Part shown: piece by piece, positions 3,276-16,677 of the stretch | Layout: each line of letters starts with the position of its first letter | Numbering within the stretch: position 1 is the stretch's first letter | Assembly (NCBI RefSeq): GCF_004365815.1 | Contig: NZ_SODD01000050.1 | Span: forward strand, 1-17,020 | Direction: 5' to 3' | DNA from: Breznakia blatticola | GTDB lineage: Bacteria; Bacillota_I; Bacilli_A; Erysipelotrichales; Erysipelotrichaceae | Length of the DNA stretch: 17,020 bases | Notes under the pieces: model-generated | The model's database searches: none | Told to the model about the DNA's origin: nothing | The model's input: only the letters and a program-made list of their open reading frames with translations | Program-made: the position numbers and the translations under genes

Positions 3276-6017
3276 ATGAATCAAAAAAAAGATACTAAGT
3301 ATTATTATTACCCAAAATATGTTCCACCAACAATGATGGTGAAAGGAATCTATTTCTATGAATGGATAATTGCAGTTGTAATTTTCTCCTTGTGTTTATG
3401 GATTCTTGGATATATAGGATTATTATTTGGACTAATATTTGGATCGACGGTATTGATACTTACTCATCGAAGCGATGGGAGAGAGAATTTTTTAGGACAA
3501 TTAAGTTCTTCCGTAAAATATATTTTTAGTCAAAGAGTTTTGATTAAACGGCCAAGAGAGGATGTGGTTGAAATCGAAGAAACAAAGGTTGATATGAAAT
3601 CAAAAAAAATAAGAAAAAAGGATAAGAAGAAAAAGCCATCAAAGAATAAACAAGAATTTATGCAAGATAGTTTTCCTTTTCGTTCAATAGAGGATGGATA
3701 CATCCGTATGAATGATGGAAGAGTAATGATCTTCTTACGAGTGAATGGTAATAATCTAGATTTCTTGAGTTTTCGCGAAATAGAAGAAATGAACAAAAAC
3801 TTATCTAAAGAGTTTGACAGAAATAAAATGAAGATCTCGTTTTTTATACAAGACTCTACATTTAATATCAAACAAAACATTAATTTTGTAAGATCAGTGG
3901 CAGAAAAAAGTAAAGTAGCGTTTCTACGCCGACTTGGAAATGAGACTGCTAGTTTCATGGATGTTCAAAAGAAGACAGCAACCAAGAAAGCAAACTTTCT
4001 TAGAGTTGTAGTTACACAAAAACAATTAGCTACATCAAGTGTAGATGACATAGTTGATAAGACGATTAAATTATTTAAAGATTCTTTAGGCTTAGAAAGA
4101 ACAACACAGTTGGAATTAAAGCAAATGTTAGCAATTTATGCGCAACGATTATTTGCAGAGAAACTGCCTGACACAGAGTTAGAACTTGAAGAAAGATATG
4201 AAGAATTCTTATTGGTGAAGAAAAAGCGTGAGGAGAAAAAGATTCAGCTTCCAGGAGTTTATGAATTCAAGGATTTCATTACTCCAGTCACGACAAATTT
4301 TAAATCAGAAAAAGTGTACTTAGGTAGTAATGTCTTAAAAACATATGGAGTATCAAGTTTCTTAGCAAGTACCGAATACAATAACTTATTTGCTAAGATC
4401 TCTACATTAAAAGGAGTAACAACTTCAATCCATATGGACGAATTGTCTTTATCTAGATTTAGATCGAATGTTTCACTTGATGTAAGAGCAAAGGGGAATA
4501 CTACAAATGATGTGGTTGATGCTATTGATGCAGAACTGGATAAAGAAAGTGTATTAGATTCTTATAAAAGAATTAGAACAAACAACCAAAAGATGTTTTA
4601 CATTACTGTATACTTTCAACTTGTTGCTTCAAGTGATGATGAGTTTGATATACTTGAGGCACAATTTAAAGAAGAGTGTGACAATGTAGGAGTAACTGTA
4701 GATCCTTTACAAACAAAACAAAAAGATGCATGGATATCGGTGAATCCAGTAGGAAAGAACATGTTGGATAAGTATATCAAACAAAATATTCCTTCGGAAT
4801 CAGTAGCGAATCTTTATCCATTTAATGATCCATCAGTGTTAGAAAAGAATGGGTTACCTCTTGGGAATATCACGGACCGTTCAGAAATCGTGTTGTTTAA
4901 TCCTTTCACAAATAGGGGAGCAAATAACAATATTCTTATCTTAGGTTATTCAGGAGTTGGGAAAACTGTTCTGATGTGGTTACTTATGCAGAATGCAGCT
5001 CTATCTGCCTATTATATTAGAAACATAGATGTTGAGGGTATTTGTGTCGACTTCATTCAAAAAATGGGTGGTATTAACATTGACATGGCAGGTAACAATG
5101 AATATGCAATTAACCCTCTTCAGATACGTACACCAGATGAAGTGGAAAATGGAATTGTTGATGATTATATCTCAGAGGTGAAAAACTTCATGAGGATCTA
5201 CAAACCGGATTGGACGAATAGAACGCTAGATATTTTTGAAGAGTTTTTGAATAAAACGTATCGTTCAAAAGATATATACAACTCTTCAGATTTAAAGTTG
5301 TTAAAACCAAGTGATTATCCAATCTTTAGCGACGTTGTAAAAATTGTATCAGAGGCGAAGTCTAATTGGACAGAAGAATCTATTGGTACAAAAGATGATT
5401 ACGATGAAATTATTATCGGTTTACGTTCATGTACAGAAGGTGCAGATGCTAAGTTGTTTAATCGACACACGAATTTAGGTGGATATGATGTTGACGAACT
5501 GCAGTTAATAAACTTCGATATTTCTAAAATGCTAAACTCAGATCTAAACCGAAAGTTAGCACAATGGTCAAATGTCTTTACGTACATCTCTCAGTTTGTA
5601 AATGACAATATGAAGCGTTCGAAAGAAATTATGGTATTCATTGATGAACTACATACATTTTTGAAGAAACAGTATATGTCGGTTGTAGAAATACTTGAGA
5701 CGTATGAGCGTCGTTTCCGCAAGTATAACGCGTCTTTTGTTAAAGCTACACAAACGGTAGAAGAACTTGATAACGATGATGACGACATGAAAGAGAAGGT
5801 AAAAACACTATTCTCTCAACCAGCAACAAAGTTTATGTTTCACTTAGGTGATATTAAGTATGAACAAGTCGCTTCAATGATGAAATTGAAATCAACAGAA
5901 GTAGAAAAGCTCCAAGAAAAACGACAAGGAAAATGTTTGATGCGTATCGGAAGTAGTACATATGATTTGTCTGTAATGATGCCAGAATGGTTTAAGGAAG
6001 TTAAGGCAGACGCATAA
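3276..6017 (+). CDS. virB4: VirB4-family T4SS ATPase with an N-terminal VirB3/TcpE-like transmembrane module (fusion)
   Basis: 913 aa. The N-terminus (YYYYPKYVPPTMMVKG) is followed by two hydrophobic helices and a Lys-rich linker. Walker A is GYSGVGKT (nt 4944-4967). Walker B-like is IMVFIDELH. Confidence 0.92.
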   Translation: MNQKKDTKYYYYPKYVPPTMMVKGIYFYEWIIAVVIFSLCLWILGYIGLLFGLIFGSTVLILTHRSDGRENFLGQLSSSVKYIFSQRVLIKRPREDVVEIEETKVDMKSKKIRKKDKKKKPSKNKQEFMQDSFPFRSIEDGYIRMNDGRVMIFLRVNGNNLDFLSFREIEEMNKNLSKEFDRNKMKISFFIQDSTFNIKQNINFVRSVAEKSKVAFLRRLGNETASFMDVQKKTATKKANFLRVVVTQKQLATSSVDDIVDKTIKLFKDSLGLERTTQLELKQMLAIYAQRLFAEKLPDTELELEERYEEFLLVKKKREEKKIQLPGVYEFKDFITPVTTNFKSEKVYLGSNVLKTYGVSSFLASTEYNNLFAKISTLKGVTTSIHMDELSLSRFRSNVSLDVRAKGNTTNDVVDAIDAELDKESVLDSYKRIRTNNQKMFYITVYFQLVASSDDEFDILEAQFKEECDNVGVTVDPLQTKQKDAWISVNPVGKNMLDKYIKQNIPSESVANLYPFNDPSVLEKNGLPLGNITDRSEIVLFNPFTNRGANNNILILGYSGVGKTVLMWLLMQNAALSAYYIRNIDVEGICVDFIQKMGGINIDMAGNNEYAINPLQIRTPDEVENGIVDDYISEVKNFMRIYKPDWTNRTLDIFEEFLNKTYRSKDIYNSSDLKLLKPSDYPIFSDVVKIVSEAKSNWTEESIGTKDDYDEIIIGLRSCTEGADAKLFNRHTNLGGYDVDELQLINFDISKMLNSDLNRKLAQWSNVFTYISQFVNDNMKRSKEIMVFIDELHTFLKKQYMSVVEILETYERRFRKYNASFVKATQTVEELDNDDDDMKEKVKTLFSQPATKFMFHLGDIKYEQVASMMKLKSTEVEKLQEKRQGKCLMRIGSSTYDLSVMMPEWFKEVKADA

Positions 6018-7450
6018 TGGCATGGCAAGCAAAAGTAGCTGAAGCTGCAGGGAAAATTCTACTCGGAAAATCAATAGAAAAAGATGGAGCTATGGGACCG
6101 ATCATAATGATTGCGACTGCAGCTCTAATCCCAGTGATATTTATAGTAGCGTTATTCTCTGGGGGGAATGGGACTGGTCAAGATATATACGAGAAGGCAT
6201 TCAACAATATTGAGTGTAGTCAAGATTATTACTACTATCTTGAGGATATACGTTTTTTTGATTCATACACATATCCTGATGGAGTAGAGGCTACGGATGA
6301 AAAGAAAATAGAAGAACGTATGCAACAAGATTATTTTCAAATTACTACTCCTCCAGGTAATACATCAGCAAATACTTTTCCTGGACAAAATAATCAAGCA
6401 CGGCCATTAAATGTATGTATCTTGCAAAGTGATGAAACAATTGTAAATACACTTATAATAAAGTATGGAGTAGATGAAAATCTTAAACAAGAAATTTTAG
6501 AGTCTGTGCAACAAATGAGAAATGGAAGAAACAACTTCATCTTACCCGTTGCAAATTCTCCTAAGGTTTTAGGTAAATACGGACAAGATAAGAAGCTGAA
6601 AGGAATTGAGTTAGAGGCACCTGAAGGAACGGAAGTGGTTGCTGTTCATGATGGAGTGATAGAAGATATCGTGACATCTAAAGATACCTACTATGGCGTG
6701 AATGAAAAAGGTGATGTTGTTGAAAAGACTAAAGGTCTAACAATTGTAATTAAGCATGACACAATTCTTGGTTTAAATAAATTTGGTGAATATGACACAA
6801 GAATAGTTTATTCTCATATTCCGAATTTACAGAATGTTAAATGGAATGTAGGAGACAAAATATCTCAAGGTGAAGTGATTGGAACAAATGCTAAAAAGAC
6901 AGTATATTTTGAATTAAGAAAAAATGAAGATACAGCATTTGATCCAGCAACAATAATGTTCATTGAATCAAGTTTAGCAAGTAAAGGAGATCTAGGGTTA
7001 CCACTGGAAAATCCATTTACGATAACTTCAGAGTATGGAAAACGTGAGTATGCAGGAATGTCATTCCACCATGGAATTGACTTATCAAAGAGTGAAGGTT
7101 CATCAATTTACTCGGTAAGTGAGGGGGAAGTGATTGAAGCAAATAACACATGTGACCCATTGAAAGGAGAGACTCTTTGTCCTTCTGGTGGATATGTACC
7201 ATGGGGTGGAAATTATGTACTTATAAAATCAACAATAGACAACCAGGACTATTACATAGCATATTGTCACATGAGTAGGTCACTCTTAAAAATAGGTGAT
7301 AAAGTTCATAAAGGACAGATCGTTGGTTACCAGGGCAACAGTGGAAATTCCTATGGTTCACATCTCCATTTGGAAGTGAGGAAAGAGCCAGGTAAACAGG
7401 AAAACAGTACGGTTAATCCGAGAGAGATTATCAACTTTGGAGAACAGTAA
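6017..7450 (+). CDS. Membrane-anchored peptidoglycan hydrolase (VirB1 functional analogue) with one degenerate and one intact M23/LytM domain
   Basis: 477 aa with an N-terminal TM helix (IIMIATAALIPVIFIVALF). The C-terminal domain has HHGID (H351, H352 and D355; nt 7067-7081) and HLHLE (7361-7375). The upstream domain (~6584-6940) has the M23 fold signature (EAPEGTEVVAVHDGVIEDIV ... GDKISQGEVIG) but lacks the metal ligands. Confidence 0.9.
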   Translation: MAWQAKVAEAAGKILLGKSIEKDGAMGPIIMIATAALIPVIFIVALFSGGNGTGQDIYEKAFNNIECSQDYYYYLEDIRFFDSYTYPDGVEATDEKKIEERMQQDYFQITTPPGNTSANTFPGQNNQARPLNVCILQSDETIVNTLIIKYGVDENLKQEILESVQQMRNGRNNFILPVANSPKVLGKYGQDKKLKGIELEAPEGTEVVAVHDGVIEDIVTSKDTYYGVNEKGDVVEKTKGLTIVIKHDTILGLNKFGEYDTRIVYSHIPNLQNVKWNVGDKISQGEVIGTNAKKTVYFELRKNEDTAFDPATIMFIESSLASKGDLGLPLENPFTITSEYGKREYAGMSFHHGIDLSKSEGSSIYSVSEGEVIEANNTCDPLKGETLCPSGGYVPWGGNYVLIKSTIDNQDYYIAYCHMSRSLLKIGDKVHKGQIVGYQGNSGNSYGSHLHLEVRKEPGKQENSTVNPREIINFGEQ

Positions 7451-7468
7451 GCTGTTGTTTCAATGCGA

Positions 7469-7490
7469 GGGTGACAGTCACTGTCACCCT
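7469..7490. repeat. 22-nt GC-rich palindrome GGGTGACAGTCACTGTCACCCT, copy 1
   Basis: 9-bp arms GGGTGACAG/CTGTCACCC around TCA. It lies 19 nt after the hydrolase stop. An identical copy is at 7739-7760. Confidence 0.9.
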
Positions 7491-7507
7491 ATCTACGAAA
7501 TATCAAA

Positions 7508-7722
7508 GGTTGCCAAAATAATACGTAAAATAAGAGGAATATGAAGAAAATGTATAGATAGTTGCTATTTTATCGATTGATGTACAACAAAAGTTGCCAA
7601 AAATGGCAACTCGAAAAATCAATGTTTATCATGGTTTTTAGTAGCCGGCTCTGCCGGATGCTGTTAAATGGCAACTTAGAGTTGCCATCCTTTATCCTGC
7701 ATAACCACCAAATATGGTGGTT
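7508..7722. other. Candidate origin of transfer (oriT): cluster of six (A/G)GTTGC(C/T)A 8-mers and three further hairpin-forming inverted repeats
   Basis: 8-mers at 7508-7515 and 7560-7567 (degenerate). Inverted pair AGTTGCCA-aaaa-TGGCAACT at 7592-7611, and the flipped pair TGGCAACT-tag-AGTTGCCA at 7669-7687. CCGGC-tct-GCCGG at 7645-7657. AACCACCA-aata-TGGTGGTT at 7703-7722. The region is non-coding, lies between convergent genes, and is about 1 kb from the relaxase operon. Confidence 0.5.
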
Positions 7723-7738
7723 GGGGTAAAAATTGGGG

Positions 7739-7760
7739 GGGTGACAGTCACTGTCACCCT
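7739..7760. repeat. 22-nt GC-rich palindrome GGGTGACAGTCACTGTCACCCT, copy 2
   Basis: Identical to 7469-7490. It is preceded by extra G residues, giving a G7 run at 7735-7741. It lies 10 nt beyond the stop of the minus-strand gene 7770-8171. Confidence 0.9.
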
Positions 7761-7769
7761 TACCAATTT

Positions 7770-8171
7770 TTACTCGGTGTCGGCTTCAGGAATTGCTCCT
7801 GTGGGCGAGTTCAGTTCTTTATACTGAATTAATAGGCTAGCCATTTCCGGGTCTTTACCTGCATATTTTTCAAGCGTATCAAGCATCTTAATGTCTGCAA
7901 TTTTTTCTTGCATTTTATCATTAAGGACACGCTTGCGAATAGATGCGTCTTGGCGTTCGCGAAACGATTTCATATCAACCACATCAATGATTTCAAGCGG
8001 TTGGTGATACTTAGTGATTGCTTCGTATTGGTTGATTAGTTTTACAACTTGAACGCATACAGGCTCATTATCGTAGTTAGGGATAACAACCCAATCTTTC
8101 TCTTTTACGGATTTGTCAGTTAAGTAACAGTCAATTCCTTCATAACGGTTTTCTACTAAAATATAGTTCAT
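7770..8171 (-). CDS. Acidic hypothetical protein (133 aa), second gene of the SSB cassette
   Basis: GGAGAG lies 7 nt upstream of the ATG on the minus strand. By my count there are about 25 Asp/Glu against 18 Lys/Arg. No recognisable motif. It lies downstream of ssb and next to the oriT-like region. Confidence 0.7.
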   Translation of the reverse strand: MNYILVENRYEGIDCYLTDKSVKEKDWVVIPNYDNEPVCVQVVKLINQYEAITKYHQPLEIIDVVDMKSFRERQDASIRKRVLNDKMQEKIADIKMLDTLEKYAGKDPEMASLLIQYKELNSPTGAIPEADTE

Positions 8172-8207
8172 GATTTTTCTCTCCGTGTGCTATGGTTGGC
8201 ACTAATT

Positions 8208-8522
8208 TTAAACTTCTAAGTATTGAACTCTTTCGGCAACGAATTCATAGTTTGTGTAAGTCTTGTTTTCTTCACTCGTGTAGAAACTTGTAATCACGCG
8301 ACCCCTAATTGCCAGTAAGGTGTCTTTATCGCAAGTATCAATTACTTCTTCTGCAATGCCACGCCAAAGAGTGATTTGGAATATGTCACGTTCATAAACG
8401 CCGTCAGCATTTTTAAAATTGCGTTTTACGGCAAGTGATAAAAATGTGTACTTAATATTTACGCTTGTGAGTTGCAGGATTGGTTTTTCTACTATGCGAC
8501 CTACTAATATAAATTGATTCAC
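8208..8522 (-). CDS. ssb: Single-stranded DNA-binding protein, OB-fold core only (104 aa, no C-terminal acidic tail)
   Basis: MNQFILVGRIVEKPILQ...LAVKRNFKNADGVYERDIFQITLWRGIAEEV...AIRGRVITSFY...EFVAERVQYLEV aligns by eye along its length with the bacterial SSB OB fold (MNxVxLxGRL...LAVNRxFKN...DFxxxxxW...AExV...GRxxTRxY...VxAxxVQFLE). The SD AAAGGAG lies 6 nt upstream of the ATG. Confidence 0.85.
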   Translation of the reverse strand: MNQFILVGRIVEKPILQLTSVNIKYTFLSLAVKRNFKNADGVYERDIFQITLWRGIAEEVIDTCDKDTLLAIRGRVITSFYTSEENKTYTNYEFVAERVQYLEV

Positions 8523-8546
8523 ATGTCTGCTCCTTTCTCGGATGTA

Positions 8547-8666
8547 TCTTCCATCCGCACCCGATGAGTAACATCTGCGTAAGCAATCTTTGCAAGGGCG
8601 ACGAAGGAGTGCATTTACCCTTGCGAAGTTGCTGCAGGTGTTATCTTGTCGGTGGGGATGGAAAGA
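8547..8666 (+). promoter_or_regulatory. Long imperfect hairpin (~46 bp stem, 19-nt loop) upstream of ssb; candidate ssDNA promoter or single-strand origin (Frpo/sso-like), or alternatively back-to-back divergent promoters
   Basis: The left arm 8547-8598 pairs with the right arm 8618-8666. The stem has four G-T wobbles (8591/8625, 8574/8638, 8566/8647, 8565/8648) and bulges at 8587, 8579-8581, 8644, 8560 and 8664. On the minus strand the wobbles become A-C mismatches. The right arm carries TTGCGA (8621-8626), a 15-nt spacer, then TGtTATCTT (8639-8647). Confidence 0.45.
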
Positions 8667-8732
8667 AATTATAAAAAAGAAAATATTGGAAACGAAAAAT
8701 GATTTGATAAGAATTATTAGAAAAGAGGTTAT

Positions 8733-9179
8733 ATGAAAAAAGAAACATGTTTTGTTCGCGATCTAGACAAACAATTGTTAGATGAAGCAACAGAGATTGT
8801 TAGAAAAAAAGGAATAACAATCAAAACAGCAAAAGGAAACTTGGAATATATTTTGAAAGACTATGTCCGTTTACAACAAATGGGCATCTTAGAAAATCCA
8901 TATTTCTTGAAACAAGTAGAAAATATAATTGACAATAGATGTAATCGAATGGAGCGAACACTTGGTGGTAGATTATATACACTAACTGGAGAGCTTGCAA
9001 TTCAGACAGGAATTACAAACCGACTTGTTGCTGATTCAGTAGCTACCTTCTCAGAAGATGCTCCAGAAGAACGTATTAACAACTATCGAGTATTAGCTGT
9101 AGATGATCTAAGAAATAAAAAGAAACCAAGTACCTATATAGAACTTATAAAAGACGAGACTGAGGACTACGATGGCTAG
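8733..9179 (+). CDS. Putative relaxosome accessory protein with an N-terminal ribbon-helix-helix-like segment
   Basis: 148 aa. The N-terminus ETCFVRDLDKQLLDEATEIVRKKGITIKTAKGNLEYILKDYV fits the RHH strand-helix-helix pattern. The gene overlaps the relaxase start by 8 nt (ATGGCTAG). Confidence 0.5.
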   Translation: MKKETCFVRDLDKQLLDEATEIVRKKGITIKTAKGNLEYILKDYVRLQQMGILENPYFLKQVENIIDNRCNRMERTLGGRLYTLTGELAIQTGITNRLVADSVATFSEDAPEERINNYRVLAVDDLRNKKKPSTYIELIKDETEDYDG

Positions 9180-10842
9180 GCTGATTATGTATTCTGACTT
9201 TCTTTCGAACAAAGAAAAACCGCAGATATTAAATTCCCTGGAATATATCGCTAAACGTGAAGGAGTAGAAATTAATGGAAAGCAGAAGTTAATTGAACAG
9301 AAATATGATTTAAAAGGATTAGTAACAAAAAAACAAGAAGAGCTAATTACTGAAGTTGTAACTAAATATCCTGATACCAAAGAGTTGTTAGAATATCAAG
9401 AATACACAAATCAATCAACAAAACAAAACGCTAGTAACTTTATAACAATGGCAACACAAAGACTGGAAGAACTTGCATTCACTAATGCAGATTACATGAA
9501 ATACATTTCAGAACGCCCAGGAGTAGAAATTAACGAAAATGATACACATGGATTGTTCAATAAGGATGGAGTTGCTGATCTAAGTCATGTGAAAAGTACA
9601 TTTGCTGATCATCAAGGAGTAGTTTGGCGTGATGTTATTTCTTTACGAAGAGAAGATGCAATAGAGGTGGGTCTTGACTCTCGCGAAGCATGGCAAAAAA
9701 TGCTTTCTTCACATATGAACAAAAAAGCAGAATTGTTAGGTATTCCACAGGATGAATTTCATTGGTGTGCAGCGTTTCATGATGAAAGTTTTCATCCGCA
9801 CGTGCATGTAATGTCATGGTCGGATAATTTAGCAGCAGGTTATCAGGATGTACATGCAATAGAAAAGTTTAAATCAGTGCTTGCGAACGATATTTTTGAG
9901 AATGAAATGTGGTTAGCTAAAGAACTGAAAAATGAAGTTCGTATAGATCTAGAAACTGAGTACAAGAATAAATTAGATGAAATTGTAAAGGATGCAAGCA
10001 TTGCGTTTGTTGGAAAAAGTGAAGATGAAAATATTAATCCGATAGTAATGAATGTAGAAAACAAACTTGTTGATTTGTCTTCAGTCCTGAAAGAGAAAGG
10101 TTCTCGTGTCTATGGTTATCAAACTGCAGAGGCAAAAGATAAAACTGATGATCTTGTTTCATATTTGCTACATCAAGAAGAACTTAGACCACTACTTAAA
10201 GAATATGTTGAATCGAATCAAAGGCTTGTTGAATTTTACAAAAAGGATACATCTCAGTTTGCAGAAGAATTCTTAAATAAAATGATCCATCCAGAAAAAG
10301 GCGATCGTAAAGTCCTACATAATGCAGTTGTAGCTGCAGCATATGAAATAAAAGATGCGAATTATTCGAAGCAAATTGTTTATGGTGAACAATTGCATTC
10401 TTTAAATCAAAAGTTGTCTGAATATACAGTTCCTCATGATGTGAAAGACAAAGAAAAATTAGCACTTGCTATCAGCAAGGTTGGATTCCTTCAGGAGAAG
10501 AACTTGCATGAGATTGTTGAAGATTTAAAACCTCTTATTGATGATGAAGAAAAGGCTATGGAAATTATGCTTGATGCAAAGGACAATAGCTTATTAACGA
10601 AAACTGAAACACGTATGATCAATAACGCTTATGATGAGCGTATTGATGAAAAAGTAGATTTTGAAAATTATGAAAAAACAAATGAATCAATCAAACAAAA
10701 TGTAGCTGAAAGTTTAATCATGAGATTTATGACATTTTTATCTAATGACACGAATGAACATAATCATGAGTTGAAACGTATACAGTCAATTAAAGCGGAA
10801 GATCGTATGTTGATACGACATGCTCAAAAGCAAAGGAGATAA
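9172..10842 (+). CDS. Conjugative relaxase, MobA/MobL (MOBQ/MOBL-like) type
   Basis: 556 aa. Y25 sits in LEYIAKREGV (compare the YIQREG context of RSF1010 MobA Y25). VISLRRED is motif II-like. The His triad is FHDESFHPHVHV (nt 9778-9807). GAGGA lies 5 nt upstream of the ATG. The coupling protein gene follows. Confidence 0.85.
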   Translation: MARLIMYSDFLSNKEKPQILNSLEYIAKREGVEINGKQKLIEQKYDLKGLVTKKQEELITEVVTKYPDTKELLEYQEYTNQSTKQNASNFITMATQRLEELAFTNADYMKYISERPGVEINENDTHGLFNKDGVADLSHVKSTFADHQGVVWRDVISLRREDAIEVGLDSREAWQKMLSSHMNKKAELLGIPQDEFHWCAAFHDESFHPHVHVMSWSDNLAAGYQDVHAIEKFKSVLANDIFENEMWLAKELKNEVRIDLETEYKNKLDEIVKDASIAFVGKSEDENINPIVMNVENKLVDLSSVLKEKGSRVYGYQTAEAKDKTDDLVSYLLHQEELRPLLKEYVESNQRLVEFYKKDTSQFAEEFLNKMIHPEKGDRKVLHNAVVAAAYEIKDANYSKQIVYGEQLHSLNQKLSEYTVPHDVKDKEKLALAISKVGFLQEKNLHEIVEDLKPLIDDEEKAMEIMLDAKDNSLLTKTETRMINNAYDERIDEKVDFENYEKTNESIKQNVAESLIMRFMTFLSNDTNEHNHELKRIQSIKAEDRMLIRHAQKQRR

Positions 10843-15672: not shown

Positions 15673-16677
15673 CTAAAAATATCTTTTTGTTAGAGAATTG
15701 AGTAAATTTGATACTTCCAAAGAACTCTCTGGAAGCAAATGTGCATATGTTTTCATCACTTCATCAATCGAATCGCCTATACGCATTGCAATAGCTATTA
15801 CGGGTATTTTGTTATTGATAAGTAAAGACACATGTGAATGTCTTAAATCGTGAAGACGAATATGTGAAAGCCCTGCAGATTCTTCATAGCGTATTTTTGC
15901 CTTTCTTAAAGTTTCAAAAGCCATAGGCCTTGTCTGTCTTCCAAAAATAAAGTTATCCTTTCTATATTTATCAGATTGAATAGCAATTGTGTGAAGTGCG
16001 GTAAGTATCTTTTTGGTACTATCGTCTATTTCTATAAGGCGATACGAATTAAGGTTTTTAGGTCCTTTAACTTTTTGCTTTCCATGAACGTTCGCAACGG
16101 ATTCATCTATCTCAATGTAGTTATCTCTAAAATCATTCCATTTTAGAGCAAGTAATTCACCTCTTCGAAGACCGGCAAAATAAAATAACATAAAAATTGC
16201 TTTGTGTTCTAGATCAGTAATTTGGGAGAAAAACTTATAAAATTCTACTTCTGACCATATTTTCATTTCTTCTTTCTTTGTTGTTCTGCGTGGCATTCCT
16301 ACACGAGAAACAGGATTCCACTTAGTATCGTAAATTTTGTTGATCCAATTAAAAAATTTATTAAATACTTTATATCGATTAACAAGTGTAGTGTAGAAGC
16401 AATTGTTTTTCATCTCTAATTGCCACTGTATAATATGATCAGGTTTTATATCGTATAATCTCCATGTGCCAAAGAAGGGTTTAATGTGAAGACGATAAAT
16501 TGAGTCGTCATTTTCACATGTAGTAATTTCTTTGTTAAGGAGCGAGTGCTCCATATATTTCTCCCAATAAAAATCTAATACTTTATTTAATTCCTTGTTG
16601 ATGTGAGTTTTTTGAAGTAAACCAGGGTTTTCTTCAATTAGTTCTATCATCATTTCCTTTAGTAATTCTTTATGCAT
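15673..16677 (-). CDS. int: Tyrosine site-specific recombinase (phage integrase family) with an N-terminal SAM-like core-binding domain
   Basis: 334 aa. Box I Arg is in AGLRRGELLALKW. HDLRHSHVSLL supplies the H-x-x-R. The catalytic Tyr is in VMKTYAHLLP. The SD GAGGTGA lies 7 nt upstream of the ATG. Confidence 0.93.
   Translation of the reverse strand: MHKELLKEMMIELIEENPGLLQKTHINKELNKVLDFYWEKYMEHSLLNKEITTCENDDSIYRLHIKPFFGTWRLYDIKPDHIIQWQLEMKNNCFYTTLVNRYKVFNKFFNWINKIYDTKWNPVSRVGMPRRTTKKEEMKIWSEVEFYKFFSQITDLEHKAIFMLFYFAGLRRGELLALKWNDFRDNYIEIDESVANVHGKQKVKGPKNLNSYRLIEIDDSTKKILTALHTIAIQSDKYRKDNFIFGRQTRPMAFETLRKAKIRYEESAGLSHIRLHDLRHSHVSLLINNKIPVIAIAMRIGDSIDEVMKTYAHLLPESSLEVSNLLNSLTKRYF

Follow-up and report, generated by a model that had tools for sequence, protein, structure and literature searches.

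Plasmids of the F and I types rely on single-strand promoters to turn on protective genes within minutes after entering a recipient, and such promoters have been demonstrated so far in Gram-negative plasmids only. The known examples are Frpo1 and Frpo2 of F and ssi1-3 of ColIb-P9/pESBL. They are long stem-loops of the transferred strand, are situated in the leading region and rebuild a -35 and a -10 element on folding (PMC9849209, PMC11541004, PMC12672017). Frpo2 lies directly upstream of the F-plasmid ssb gene and is required for early ssb expression (PMC9849209), and SSB, a protein that binds single-stranded DNA, stimulates Frpo (PMC11541004). Here we describe a similar long stem-loop at positions 8547-8666 of a 17,020-nt stretch of DNA from Breznakia blatticola (NZ_SODD01000050.1; the whole stretch is called the window below). 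The window is an integrative conjugative element (ICE), as judged from the tyrosine integrase encoded on its minus strand at 15673-16677. The hairpin adjoins two minus-strand genes, ssb and a gene for a 133-aa protein (p133). It is probably a Frpo-like promoter for both genes in a Bacillota ICE, active in single-stranded DNA (ssDNA) and not homologous to Frpo.

Strand-specific folded ssDNA is also known from Bacillota in the ssoA, ssoU and ssoT elements of rolling-circle plasmids and in sso1 of ICEBs1, which the hairpin resembles in this respect. Some sso types (ssoA and ssoU) are recognised by host RNA polymerase. The ssoA type has conserved RS-B and CS-6 (TAGCGT-like) sequences, and its primer synthesis ends in the loop. 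The sso elements give rise to short primers and are not positioned for transcription of genes, whereas the promoter of the hairpin points from apex to base and then to a ribosome-binding site and a coding sequence. Direct reading of 8547-8666 found no CS-6-like TAGCG, which is a weak test. In ICEBs1, sso1 is located downstream of the origin of transfer (oriT) and helps establishment (PMC4595007).

The plasmids pLS20 and p576 have relaxases of the same family as the window and share with it the need for rapid, transient expression of establishment genes after transfer. For these MobL-family plasmids mechanisms other than ssDNA promoters have been described (PMC6294495, PMC8708921, PMC12672017). 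The establishment genes of p576 involve the repressor Reg576, and the pLS20 authors argue against ssDNA promoters, the transferred strand being non-template (PMC6294495, PMC8708921). pLS20, the prototype of the relaxase family, nicks the opposite strand (PMC5313138). As described below, the predicted oriT is inverted in the clade of Breznakia, which would make ssDNA transcription possible there. A literature search by title and abstract found no Frpo-like element in Gram-positive bacteria; coverage of this search was incomplete and priority is not guaranteed.

The hairpin was analysed in silico. With DNA parameters, the + strand of 8540-8675 folds at -34.5 kcal/mol (z = -7.1), a value equalled by none of 200 shuffled sequences. 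In the minimum-energy structure 46 pairs extend from 8547/8666 to 8598/8618 and close a 19-nt loop. A previous sequence-only reading of this DNA had described an imperfect stem of about 46 bp with a 19-nt loop, in which all four non-Watson-Crick pairs are G·T on the + strand, and the fold agrees with that description in detail. Exactly four G·T pairs are present (8565/8648, 8566/8647, 8574/8638 and 8591/8625), and the bases left unpaired inside the stem are 8557, 8562, 8579-8581, 8587, 8644, 8655 and 8662. The bulges that the reading had placed at 8579-8581 and 8644 and the wobbles at 8565/8566 are thus all where it had put them. The left arm (8547-8598, with extra bulged bases at 8579-8581 and 8587) would be the template strand of the folded promoter and the right arm (8618-8666) the non-template strand; the apical loop (8599-8617) contains C-GAA-G at 8602-8606. 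A sliding fold scan of the entire window found comparable folding potential only here and in the oriT region at 7626-7775.

Relatives of the locus were found through protein look-ups, in the neighbourhoods of relaxases and p133 homologues. These are L001 (Breznakia pachnodae), L003, L084, L085, L086-L088, L089/L090, L091, L093 and L094. Nine relatives, representing about 7 lineages with relaxases 34-45% identical to that of the window, have a hairpin at the same place. Where the contig is long enough, they share a layout of an M23 peptidase gene, an oriT-like region, one to three minus-strand genes, the long hairpin and the relaxase operon; several of them have variable cargo after the M23 peptidase gene. 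The distance from the hairpin to the first called minus-strand gene is 24 nt in the window, 28-49 nt in eight of the nine relatives and about 138 nt in L089, and on the other side the next + strand gene is about 10 to 508 nt away. Between hairpin base and start codon, nine of the ten elements have 24-49 nt with a ribosome-binding site and nothing else. The longer gap of L089 (5220-5350) has a second ribosome-binding-site-like AAAGGAG beside the hairpin, which suggests a very small open reading frame that was not called.

The ten hairpins have 46-64 complementary pairs over 120-180 nt, with z-scores of -6.4 to -11.2 on the equivalent of the + strand and of -5.5 to -12 on the minus strand. At the sequence level they have diverged, with a mean column identity of 55% and basal stems that MAFFT/RNAalifold could not align across all ten. 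Because the basal stems share no sequence, a structure-anchored table was used in which each sequence is placed by its own fold. In this table the basal stem shows double (compensatory) changes in all 16 columns, with 156 of 160 cells paired, and compensatory changes also occur in 8 of 13 columns around the -35 and in 8 of 12 upstream of the -10. The invariant columns are C-TTG at the -35, T-G at -15/-14 and T at -12, the last followed by A in 8 of 10 hairpins. Independently, RNAalifold with seven relatives recovered the upper helices, in which 12 of 25 pairs have compensatory changes. Compensatory changes that keep the stem were what the sequence-only reading had proposed to look for; they are found across the nine relatives, together with a conserved promoter arm and a conserved bulged left arm.

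Outside this group, nucleotide similarity was not detected. A blastn search (word size 11) with 7590-8700 against 72,556 PLSDB plasmids gave no match, as did megablast, and neither the region nor a 41-mer of the hairpin had a nucleotide match in PLSDB or in GTDB representative genomes. The hairpin is therefore an analogue of Frpo/ssi and not a homologue. Exact look-up of the SSB protein returned no record. More distant MobL loci of Clostridia are without homologues of ssb, p133 and the 148-aa gene that precedes the relaxase gene in the window, and have no comparable hairpin 5' of the relaxase gene. A metagenome scan with the apex motif GCTTGATAGRAAAWTT gave 120 matches, and the best-folding ones among them, when examined, were all without the hairpin architecture.

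The promoter elements are located on the right arm. TTGCGA (8621-8626, + strand) is separated by 15 nt from TGtTATCTT (8639-8647), that is, TGT plus TATCTT with the -16 motif; the sequence-only reading had given the same TTGCGA, spacer and extended -10. All ten right arms read TTGnnn, 15-17 nt, (T)RTGnT(A/C)nnnn from 5' to 3', in which we recognise the -35 and -10 of a sigma-A promoter together with the Gram-positive -16 TRTG motif. The TTG and the preceding C are invariant in 10/10 hairpins, as are the T-G and first T of the extended -10 in the relatives. As in Frpo/ssi, the elements rebuilt by the stem-loop face the downstream genes, and their spacing is compatible with a promoter in all ten. 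The left arm read as its reverse complement gives TTGCAA, a 19-nt spacer and TACTCA in the window, in agreement with the earlier judgement that the duplex version facing ssb is the poorer one. The spacers of the ten left arms are 19, 16, 21, 19, 19, 27, 27, 19, 19 and 20 nt, so that promoter-compatible spacing is lost in nine; only L003 has 16 nt on both arms. The leftward spacers of 19-27 nt arise because the left arm holds 3-10 extra bulged bases, and from their length they would be expected to spoil a mirror-image leftward promoter in double-stranded DNA in 9/10 elements. A purine-rich internal loop of 6-10 nt takes up the remainder of the -10 and the discriminator in 8/10 hairpins, and the promoter would therefore be pre-melted from about -11 to +1. 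The start site is predicted opposite position 8557 or thereabouts.

No other promoter is apparent for the minus-strand genes. A consensus scan of 8523-8800 found no leftward consensus promoter in double-stranded DNA 5' of ssb. The leader between hairpin and ssb (8523-8546, minus strand) contains a ribosome-binding site, read directly as GGAG on the minus strand (complement of 8531-8534), and is too short to hold a separate promoter. On the + strand the consensus scan found a weak promoter-like site at 8391-8419, inside ssb. In duplex DNA the right arm probably drives the relaxase operon as well. In L084, L089 and L086 the hairpin occupies nearly the whole gap between the divergent operons, and from this layout the duplex promoter of the relaxase operon must be the right arm.

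The two strands differ in how well they fold. In the window the minus strand of 8540-8675 reaches only -26.9 kcal/mol (z = -5.8) versus -34.5 kcal/mol for the + strand, a difference of 7.6 kcal/mol, and the inequality that the sequence-only reading expected is present. Its attribution of this preference to wobble pairs stands for the window and its nearest relatives: in the window, L003 and L085 there are 12 G·T pairs on the + strand and 2 on the complement. As a signature of the whole family, the wobble asymmetry was rejected, a symmetric count over all ten hairpins giving no significant difference (16 on the + strand versus 9 on the complement, p = 0.11). In 8/10 hairpins the + strand fold is the stabler one, and the margin is large in two of them only, the window (-7.6 kcal/mol) and L003 (-4.4 kcal/mol).

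A second strand-specific feature is a DNA mini-hairpin motif, GCGN(N)AGC. It occurs in 7/10 hairpins, where all 10 copies belong to the transferred strand and the complement has none; elsewhere in the window there is one further copy, also on the + strand. This motif forms an exceptionally stable mini-hairpin as DNA and is a poor SSB binder, and it is known at ssDNA initiation sites such as the phage G4 origin, RSF1010 ssiA and the phage N4 virion-polymerase promoters (PMC13037366; PMC3201870). The copy in the window, GCGTAAGC (8577-8584, + strand; form GCGNNAGC), coincides with the GTA bulge of the left arm and might protrude from the template arm as a side hairpin. Both this mini-hairpin and the loop C-GAA-G may be more stable than the ViennaRNA DNA parameters allow for. 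In seven relatives the apex is a small three-way junction composed of the mini-hairpin, a conserved CTTGATAG and an A/T-rich hairpin just 5' of the -35, which could mimic an UP element.

Transcription of incoming ssDNA requires that the template strand of the genes be the one transferred. The sequence-only reading had guessed a + strand nick at about 7500-7750, and a motif was now located there. The predicted oriT (7591-7700, + strand) contains, besides the nick motif and an inverted repeat close to the nick, TGGCAAC/GTTGCCA repeats and a GC hairpin CCGGCTCTGCCGG. Its core at 7668-7700 reads ATGGCAACT-tag-AGTTGCCAT-ccTTTATCCTGC on the + strand; the inverted repeat ATGGCAACT-tag-AGTTGCCAT (7668-7688) ends 11 nt before the nick, and the nick motif TTTATCCTG|C (7691-7700) has its predicted cut at G7699/C7700. 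This 10-mer has a single match in the window, against 0.05 expected by chance, and TATCCTGC at 7693-7700 fits the MOBP core (C/T)ATCCTG(C/T). In MOBP systems this consensus has an inverted repeat directly 5' of the nick, and the relaxase joins the 5' side of the cut (PMC3772185). The window has three features of a MOBP-type oriT, namely the core nick sequence, the 5' inverted repeat on the cut strand and a related relaxase nearby. A variable inverted repeat followed by (C/T)TTTATCCTGC is found on the same strand just beyond the 3' end of p133 in L001, L084, L085, L086, L089, L091, L093 and L094, so that all nine elements in which the region was captured (the window and eight relatives) have the nick motif and repeat on the + strand. 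The sequence of the repeat differs in each relative, while the repeat itself is retained in the eight relatives and in at least 25 distant loci. No second nick motif was found near the relaxase gene.

Because the nick motif and its inverted repeat are on the + strand, this strand is predicted to be the transferred one. It would enter in the order p133, ssb, hairpin, and is the template of both genes, which lie directly 3' of the nick motif on the minus strand, the leading-region arrangement of F and ColIb-P9 (PMC11541004, PMC9849209). The distant Clostridia MobL loci have the motif as [IR]-CTTTATCCTGC about 640 nt upstream of the relaxase gene on the minus (template) strand in at least 25/80 cases (IR, inverted repeat); in most of the loci L006-L079 it is at about 5340-5420. 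In the Breznakia clade it is on the opposite strand, 1.5-4.6 kb upstream of the relaxase gene. The oriT-p133-hairpin unit is therefore inverted in this clade relative to the distant loci, and the relaxase operon would consequently enter early and not last. The oriT thus resembles the RP4/Ti type (MOBP) in its core (C/T)ATCCTG(C/T) with the inverted repeat directly 5' (PMC3772185), and differs from it in having a MobL/MobP3 relaxase and in being reversed with respect to the relaxase operon, which would follow the leading module into the recipient.

The two leading genes break the + strand gene array of the window. The ssb gene (8208-8522, minus strand, GTG start) encodes 104 aa with an OB-fold SSB domain (PF00436, E = 1.7e-15, 57.3 bits versus a cut-off of 26). 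The protein ends in ...RVQYLEV without a C-terminal acidic tail, as the sequence-only reading had noted, and its best NCBIfam match is a model of a 112-aa short SSB. SSB is an optional member of the module, present in the window and L084 only. In L001 (5044-5394, -), L003 (21-350, -) and L091 (2932-3282, +) its slot is taken by an unrelated protein of 109-116 aa without Pfam or NCBIfam match, which may replace SSB functionally. In every version of the module the gene adjoining oriT is a homologue of p133 (7770-8171, minus strand in the window), which would then be the first gene into the recipient.

The sequence-only reading had pointed out that leading regions are known to carry ssb and anti-defence genes, but the acidic p133 gives no indication of being an anti-defence DNA mimic. 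As an ArdA-like DNA mimic p133 was rejected, with no support from Pfam or NCBIfam and a predicted structure that points elsewhere. The AlphaFold model (50 homologues, pLDDT 93.3) is confident and shows a small beta-barrel followed by two helices, one of 37 residues and one short, and an acidic tail. Its best matches in the Protein Data Bank are all the N-terminal 3'-DNA-end-binding domain of PriA, at values that are not significant (E = 0.026-0.8). Thirteen phage proteins matched the fold at E <= 0.001, and two further, weaker ones (E = 0.0015 and 0.0032) bear a primosomal annotation. The family has 188 clusters at 50% identity and no Pfam domain, and some members have N-terminal extensions of 80-230 aa. 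From the resemblance of the predicted p133 fold to the PriA domain and to primosomal-annotated phage proteins, the module looks like a kit for turning ssDNA into duplex. Taken with the short SSB, this model-based comparison suggests that the ssb-p133 operon has a part in shielding the incoming strand and making it double-stranded, and not in countering restriction. A p133 homologue is also found at 1048-1449 of the 2304-bp contig L092, among genes of the same strand. No clean long hairpin 5' of this homologue and no nick motif were found on the 2.3-kb contig, so that the p133 family is not always tied to the module; the context of L092 may be a phage.

Compared with Frpo/ssi, therefore, the hairpin shares the position directly upstream of ssb, the transferred strand as template of the downstream genes, the predicted silence in double-stranded DNA and a possible priming role. 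It is unlike them in its host and relaxase (an Erysipelotrichaceae ICE of the Bacillota with a MobL/MobP3 relaxase), in the Gram-positive -16 TRTG and the -10 that is pre-melted in a bubble in most members, and in an apex made of a GCGN(N)AGC mini-hairpin plus an A/T-rich hairpin. It is also present as a single copy per element and serves a two-gene operon, not a large anti-defence island. Finally, unlike in Frpo/ssi, the same promoter strand probably drives the relaxase operon in the duplex.

These in silico findings can be combined in a model in which the nick position and strand, polymerase recognition, start site, timing and every protein step are predictions. The MobL/MobP3 relaxase would nick the + strand at TTTATCCTG|C (7699/7700), and this strand would enter the recipient 5' first, carrying p133, ssb and then the hairpin. 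Incoming 8547-8666 would fold back, nucleated by the SSB-resistant mini-hairpin. The right arm would then supply the non-template -35, -16 (TRTG) and -10 of a sigma-A promoter and the left arm its template. In most relatives the stretch from the -10 to +1 would be an unpaired bubble, that is, a promoter already open. Host sigma-A RNA polymerase would initiate opposite about 8557, close to the top of the basal stem, and transcribe the ssDNA leftward to give ssb-p133 mRNA before a complementary strand exists; the transcript would end at the terminator-like hairpin 7726-7773 or at the 5' end of the strand. It may also prime complementary-strand synthesis, as shown for Frpo of the F plasmid. Synthesis of the second strand would erase the hairpin and put leftward reading out of register (spacers of 19-27 nt in 9/10), so that ssb-p133 would be turned off, while the right arm of the duplex would read rightward into the relaxase operon. 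A priming function and, in the duplex, a function as relaxase-operon promoter may thus be added to the single-strand promoter. A more far-reaching version of this idea holds that one sigma-A promoter strand serves two directions, leftward to ssb-p133 from folded ssDNA and rightward to the relaxase operon (in relatives also to an ArdC-ArdA gene) from duplex, with leftward reading disabled by the bulge-lengthened spacer. We regard this version as tentative, with chances somewhat short of even.

Several observations weigh against a single-strand promoter. The spacer of the window is 15 nt, and its -10, like that of L094, is mostly base-paired and not in a bubble. Outside the window the -10 hexamers are weak (TAGAAG, TCAAAA, TAGAAC), and the usually important last T of the -10 is found in the window only. 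The G·T asymmetry is not significant over the ten hairpins, and in most relatives the two strands differ by only some 2 kcal/mol, with L091 showing the opposite sign. The structure-anchored covariation tables are biased towards the structure on which they were built. The strand assignment depends on a motif with a predicted nick position. Lastly, a priming signal recognised by a primase would account equally well for the mini-hairpin apex and for the DnaG-type primase that the element encodes.

The last point leads to the explanation that the hairpin is only an sso/ssi-like priming signal, for RNA polymerase or for the element's own DnaG-type primase, that its adjacency to ssb is incidental and that ssb and p133 are expressed in some other way. 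The folded signal does contain mini-hairpins of the kinds seen in primase-recognised ssi sites, GCGN(N)AGC (GCGTAAGC) and CCGAAGG-like (C-GAA-G). GCGN(N)AGC is typical of the primase-recognised ssDNA origins of G4 and RSF1010 ssiA (PMC13037366), a CHC2/Toprim primase is encoded by the element itself at 327-2126, a functional sso is located downstream of oriT in ICEBs1 (PMC4595007), and the PriA-like fold of p133 suggests a module oriented to replication. A primase site, however, does not explain the invariant -35 TTG, -16 TRTG and -12T/-11A, the 15-17 nt spacing or the bubble from -11 to +1. Nor does it explain why the hairpin keeps 24-49 nt from a gene with a ribosome-binding site in 9/10 elements while its opposite flank varies, and it leaves ssb and p133 with no other leftward promoter. 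Priming and promoter functions are compatible, as Frpo shows. A purely priming role is plausible but judged unlikely. An RNA structure is less likely again and would be quite improbable: the hairpin would act, for instance, in a + sense transcript leader that begins within ssb and belongs to the relaxase operon, through attenuation, processing or stability. RNA tolerates G·U pairs, the + sense hairpin folds better with RNA parameters (-65.2 versus -52.7 kcal/mol for the - sense), the weak site at 8391-8419 could serve as the promoter, and pLS20 is reported to use a long structured leader (PMC13401043). On the other hand, Rfam gave no family at gathering thresholds, only noise far below them (E <= 1), and direct reading found no U-run 3' of the hairpin in either sense. 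The promoter-spaced invariant motifs and the bubble are left unexplained and the ssb-p133 operon promoterless, while the mini-hairpin with a GNA loop is described as a DNA motif (PMC13037366; PMC3201870). The terminator-like palindromes around oriT also argue against read-through from upstream.

Two further explanations concern the duplex and the other strand. The region lies between two divergent operons, TTG...TGnTA-like sequences are present on both arms, and L003 has 16-nt spacers on both, as would be expected of ordinary back-to-back promoters in double-stranded DNA with a palindromic operator and a hairpin potential that is a by-product. Yet 46-64 pairs that span 120-180 nt and covary freely except at the promoter positions far exceed the needs of an operator, and the leftward spacers of 19-27 nt in 9/10 hairpins would disable such a promoter. 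Bubbles and an apical three-way junction would be meaningless in duplex DNA, and the mini-hairpin motif is strand-specific; this explanation is accordingly given very little weight. The least credible of all, and hardly to be expected, is that the minus strand is transferred, as in pLS20, and folds there for the relaxase operon or its sso. The distant MobL loci do have the nick motif on the minus strand, and the minus strands of the hairpins fold well too. Against this stand the nick motif with its inverted repeat on the + strand in 9/9 captured elements of the clade, the lack of a second motif near the relaxase gene, the 19-27 nt spacers of the arm that would have to be the promoter and the absence of the mini-hairpin motif from the minus strand. 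The Frpo-like single-strand promoter thus remains the explanation that we consider probable.

The surroundings of the module belong to a conjugative element. On the + strand the window encodes the DnaG-type primase, a TrbL/VirB6-like protein, a VirB4-like ATPase, the M23 peptidase (6017-7450) and a VirD4-type coupling protein. The relaxase operon (8733-10842, + strand) consists of a 148-aa gene (8733-9179) directly 5' of the MobL/MobP3 relaxase gene (9172-10842; Pfam MobL, E = 2.4e-14; NCBIfam MobP3, 332.9 bits versus a cut-off of 150). The 148-aa protein has homologues in L001 and L003 and is likely an accessory protein. The oriT region is bracketed by two copies of a perfect 22-nt palindrome, GGGTGACAGTCACTGTCACCC. 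Copy 1 (7468-7489) follows the M23 peptidase gene, and copy 2 (7739-7760) is part of the terminator-like hairpin 7726-7773, with flanks AAAAATTGG/CCAATTTTT, immediately after the stop codon of p133. Around the oriT of L001 there are three copies of a version particular to it (GTCAGTCACTGAC), at about 3975-3995, 4080-4098 and 4362-4380. These palindromes could be bidirectional terminators, insulators or protein-binding sites. TGGCAAC/GTTGCCA occurs five times at 7510-7688 of the window, including the palindrome GTTGCCAAAAATGGCAAC at 7594-7611, and the core CGGCTCTGCCG of the GC hairpin at 7646-7658 is conserved in L001; both the repeats and the GC hairpin are probably binding sites for accessory proteins of the relaxosome. 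Some relatives have defence-related cargo near the module. An ArdC-ArdA anti-restriction fusion is encoded just past the hairpin in L086 (3625-5535) and L093 (3632-5539), in an orientation that is unreadable from the transferred strand. ToxN toxins and a nucleotidyltransferase/HEPN pair are located beside oriT in L084 (3469-4167) and L085 (3225-4169).

A structurally defined, non-homologous example of a single-strand promoter in ICEs of gut Bacillota would show convergent evolution with those of the Gram-negative plasmids. It also provides a search template, consisting of a nick motif on the genes' template strand and a hairpin with -35/-16/-10 on its 3' arm, a -10 bubble and a mini-hairpin cap, and a testable rule, that bulges in the template arm silence the duplex form. 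The p133 proteins form an uncharacterised family resembling the 3'-end-binding domain of PriA and are a candidate early factor in second-strand synthesis. If the two-direction promoter is true, Gram-positive conjugative elements would have in it their first single-strand promoter, and also a built-in developmental switch made possible by an oriT that is inverted with respect to the other MobL-family members.

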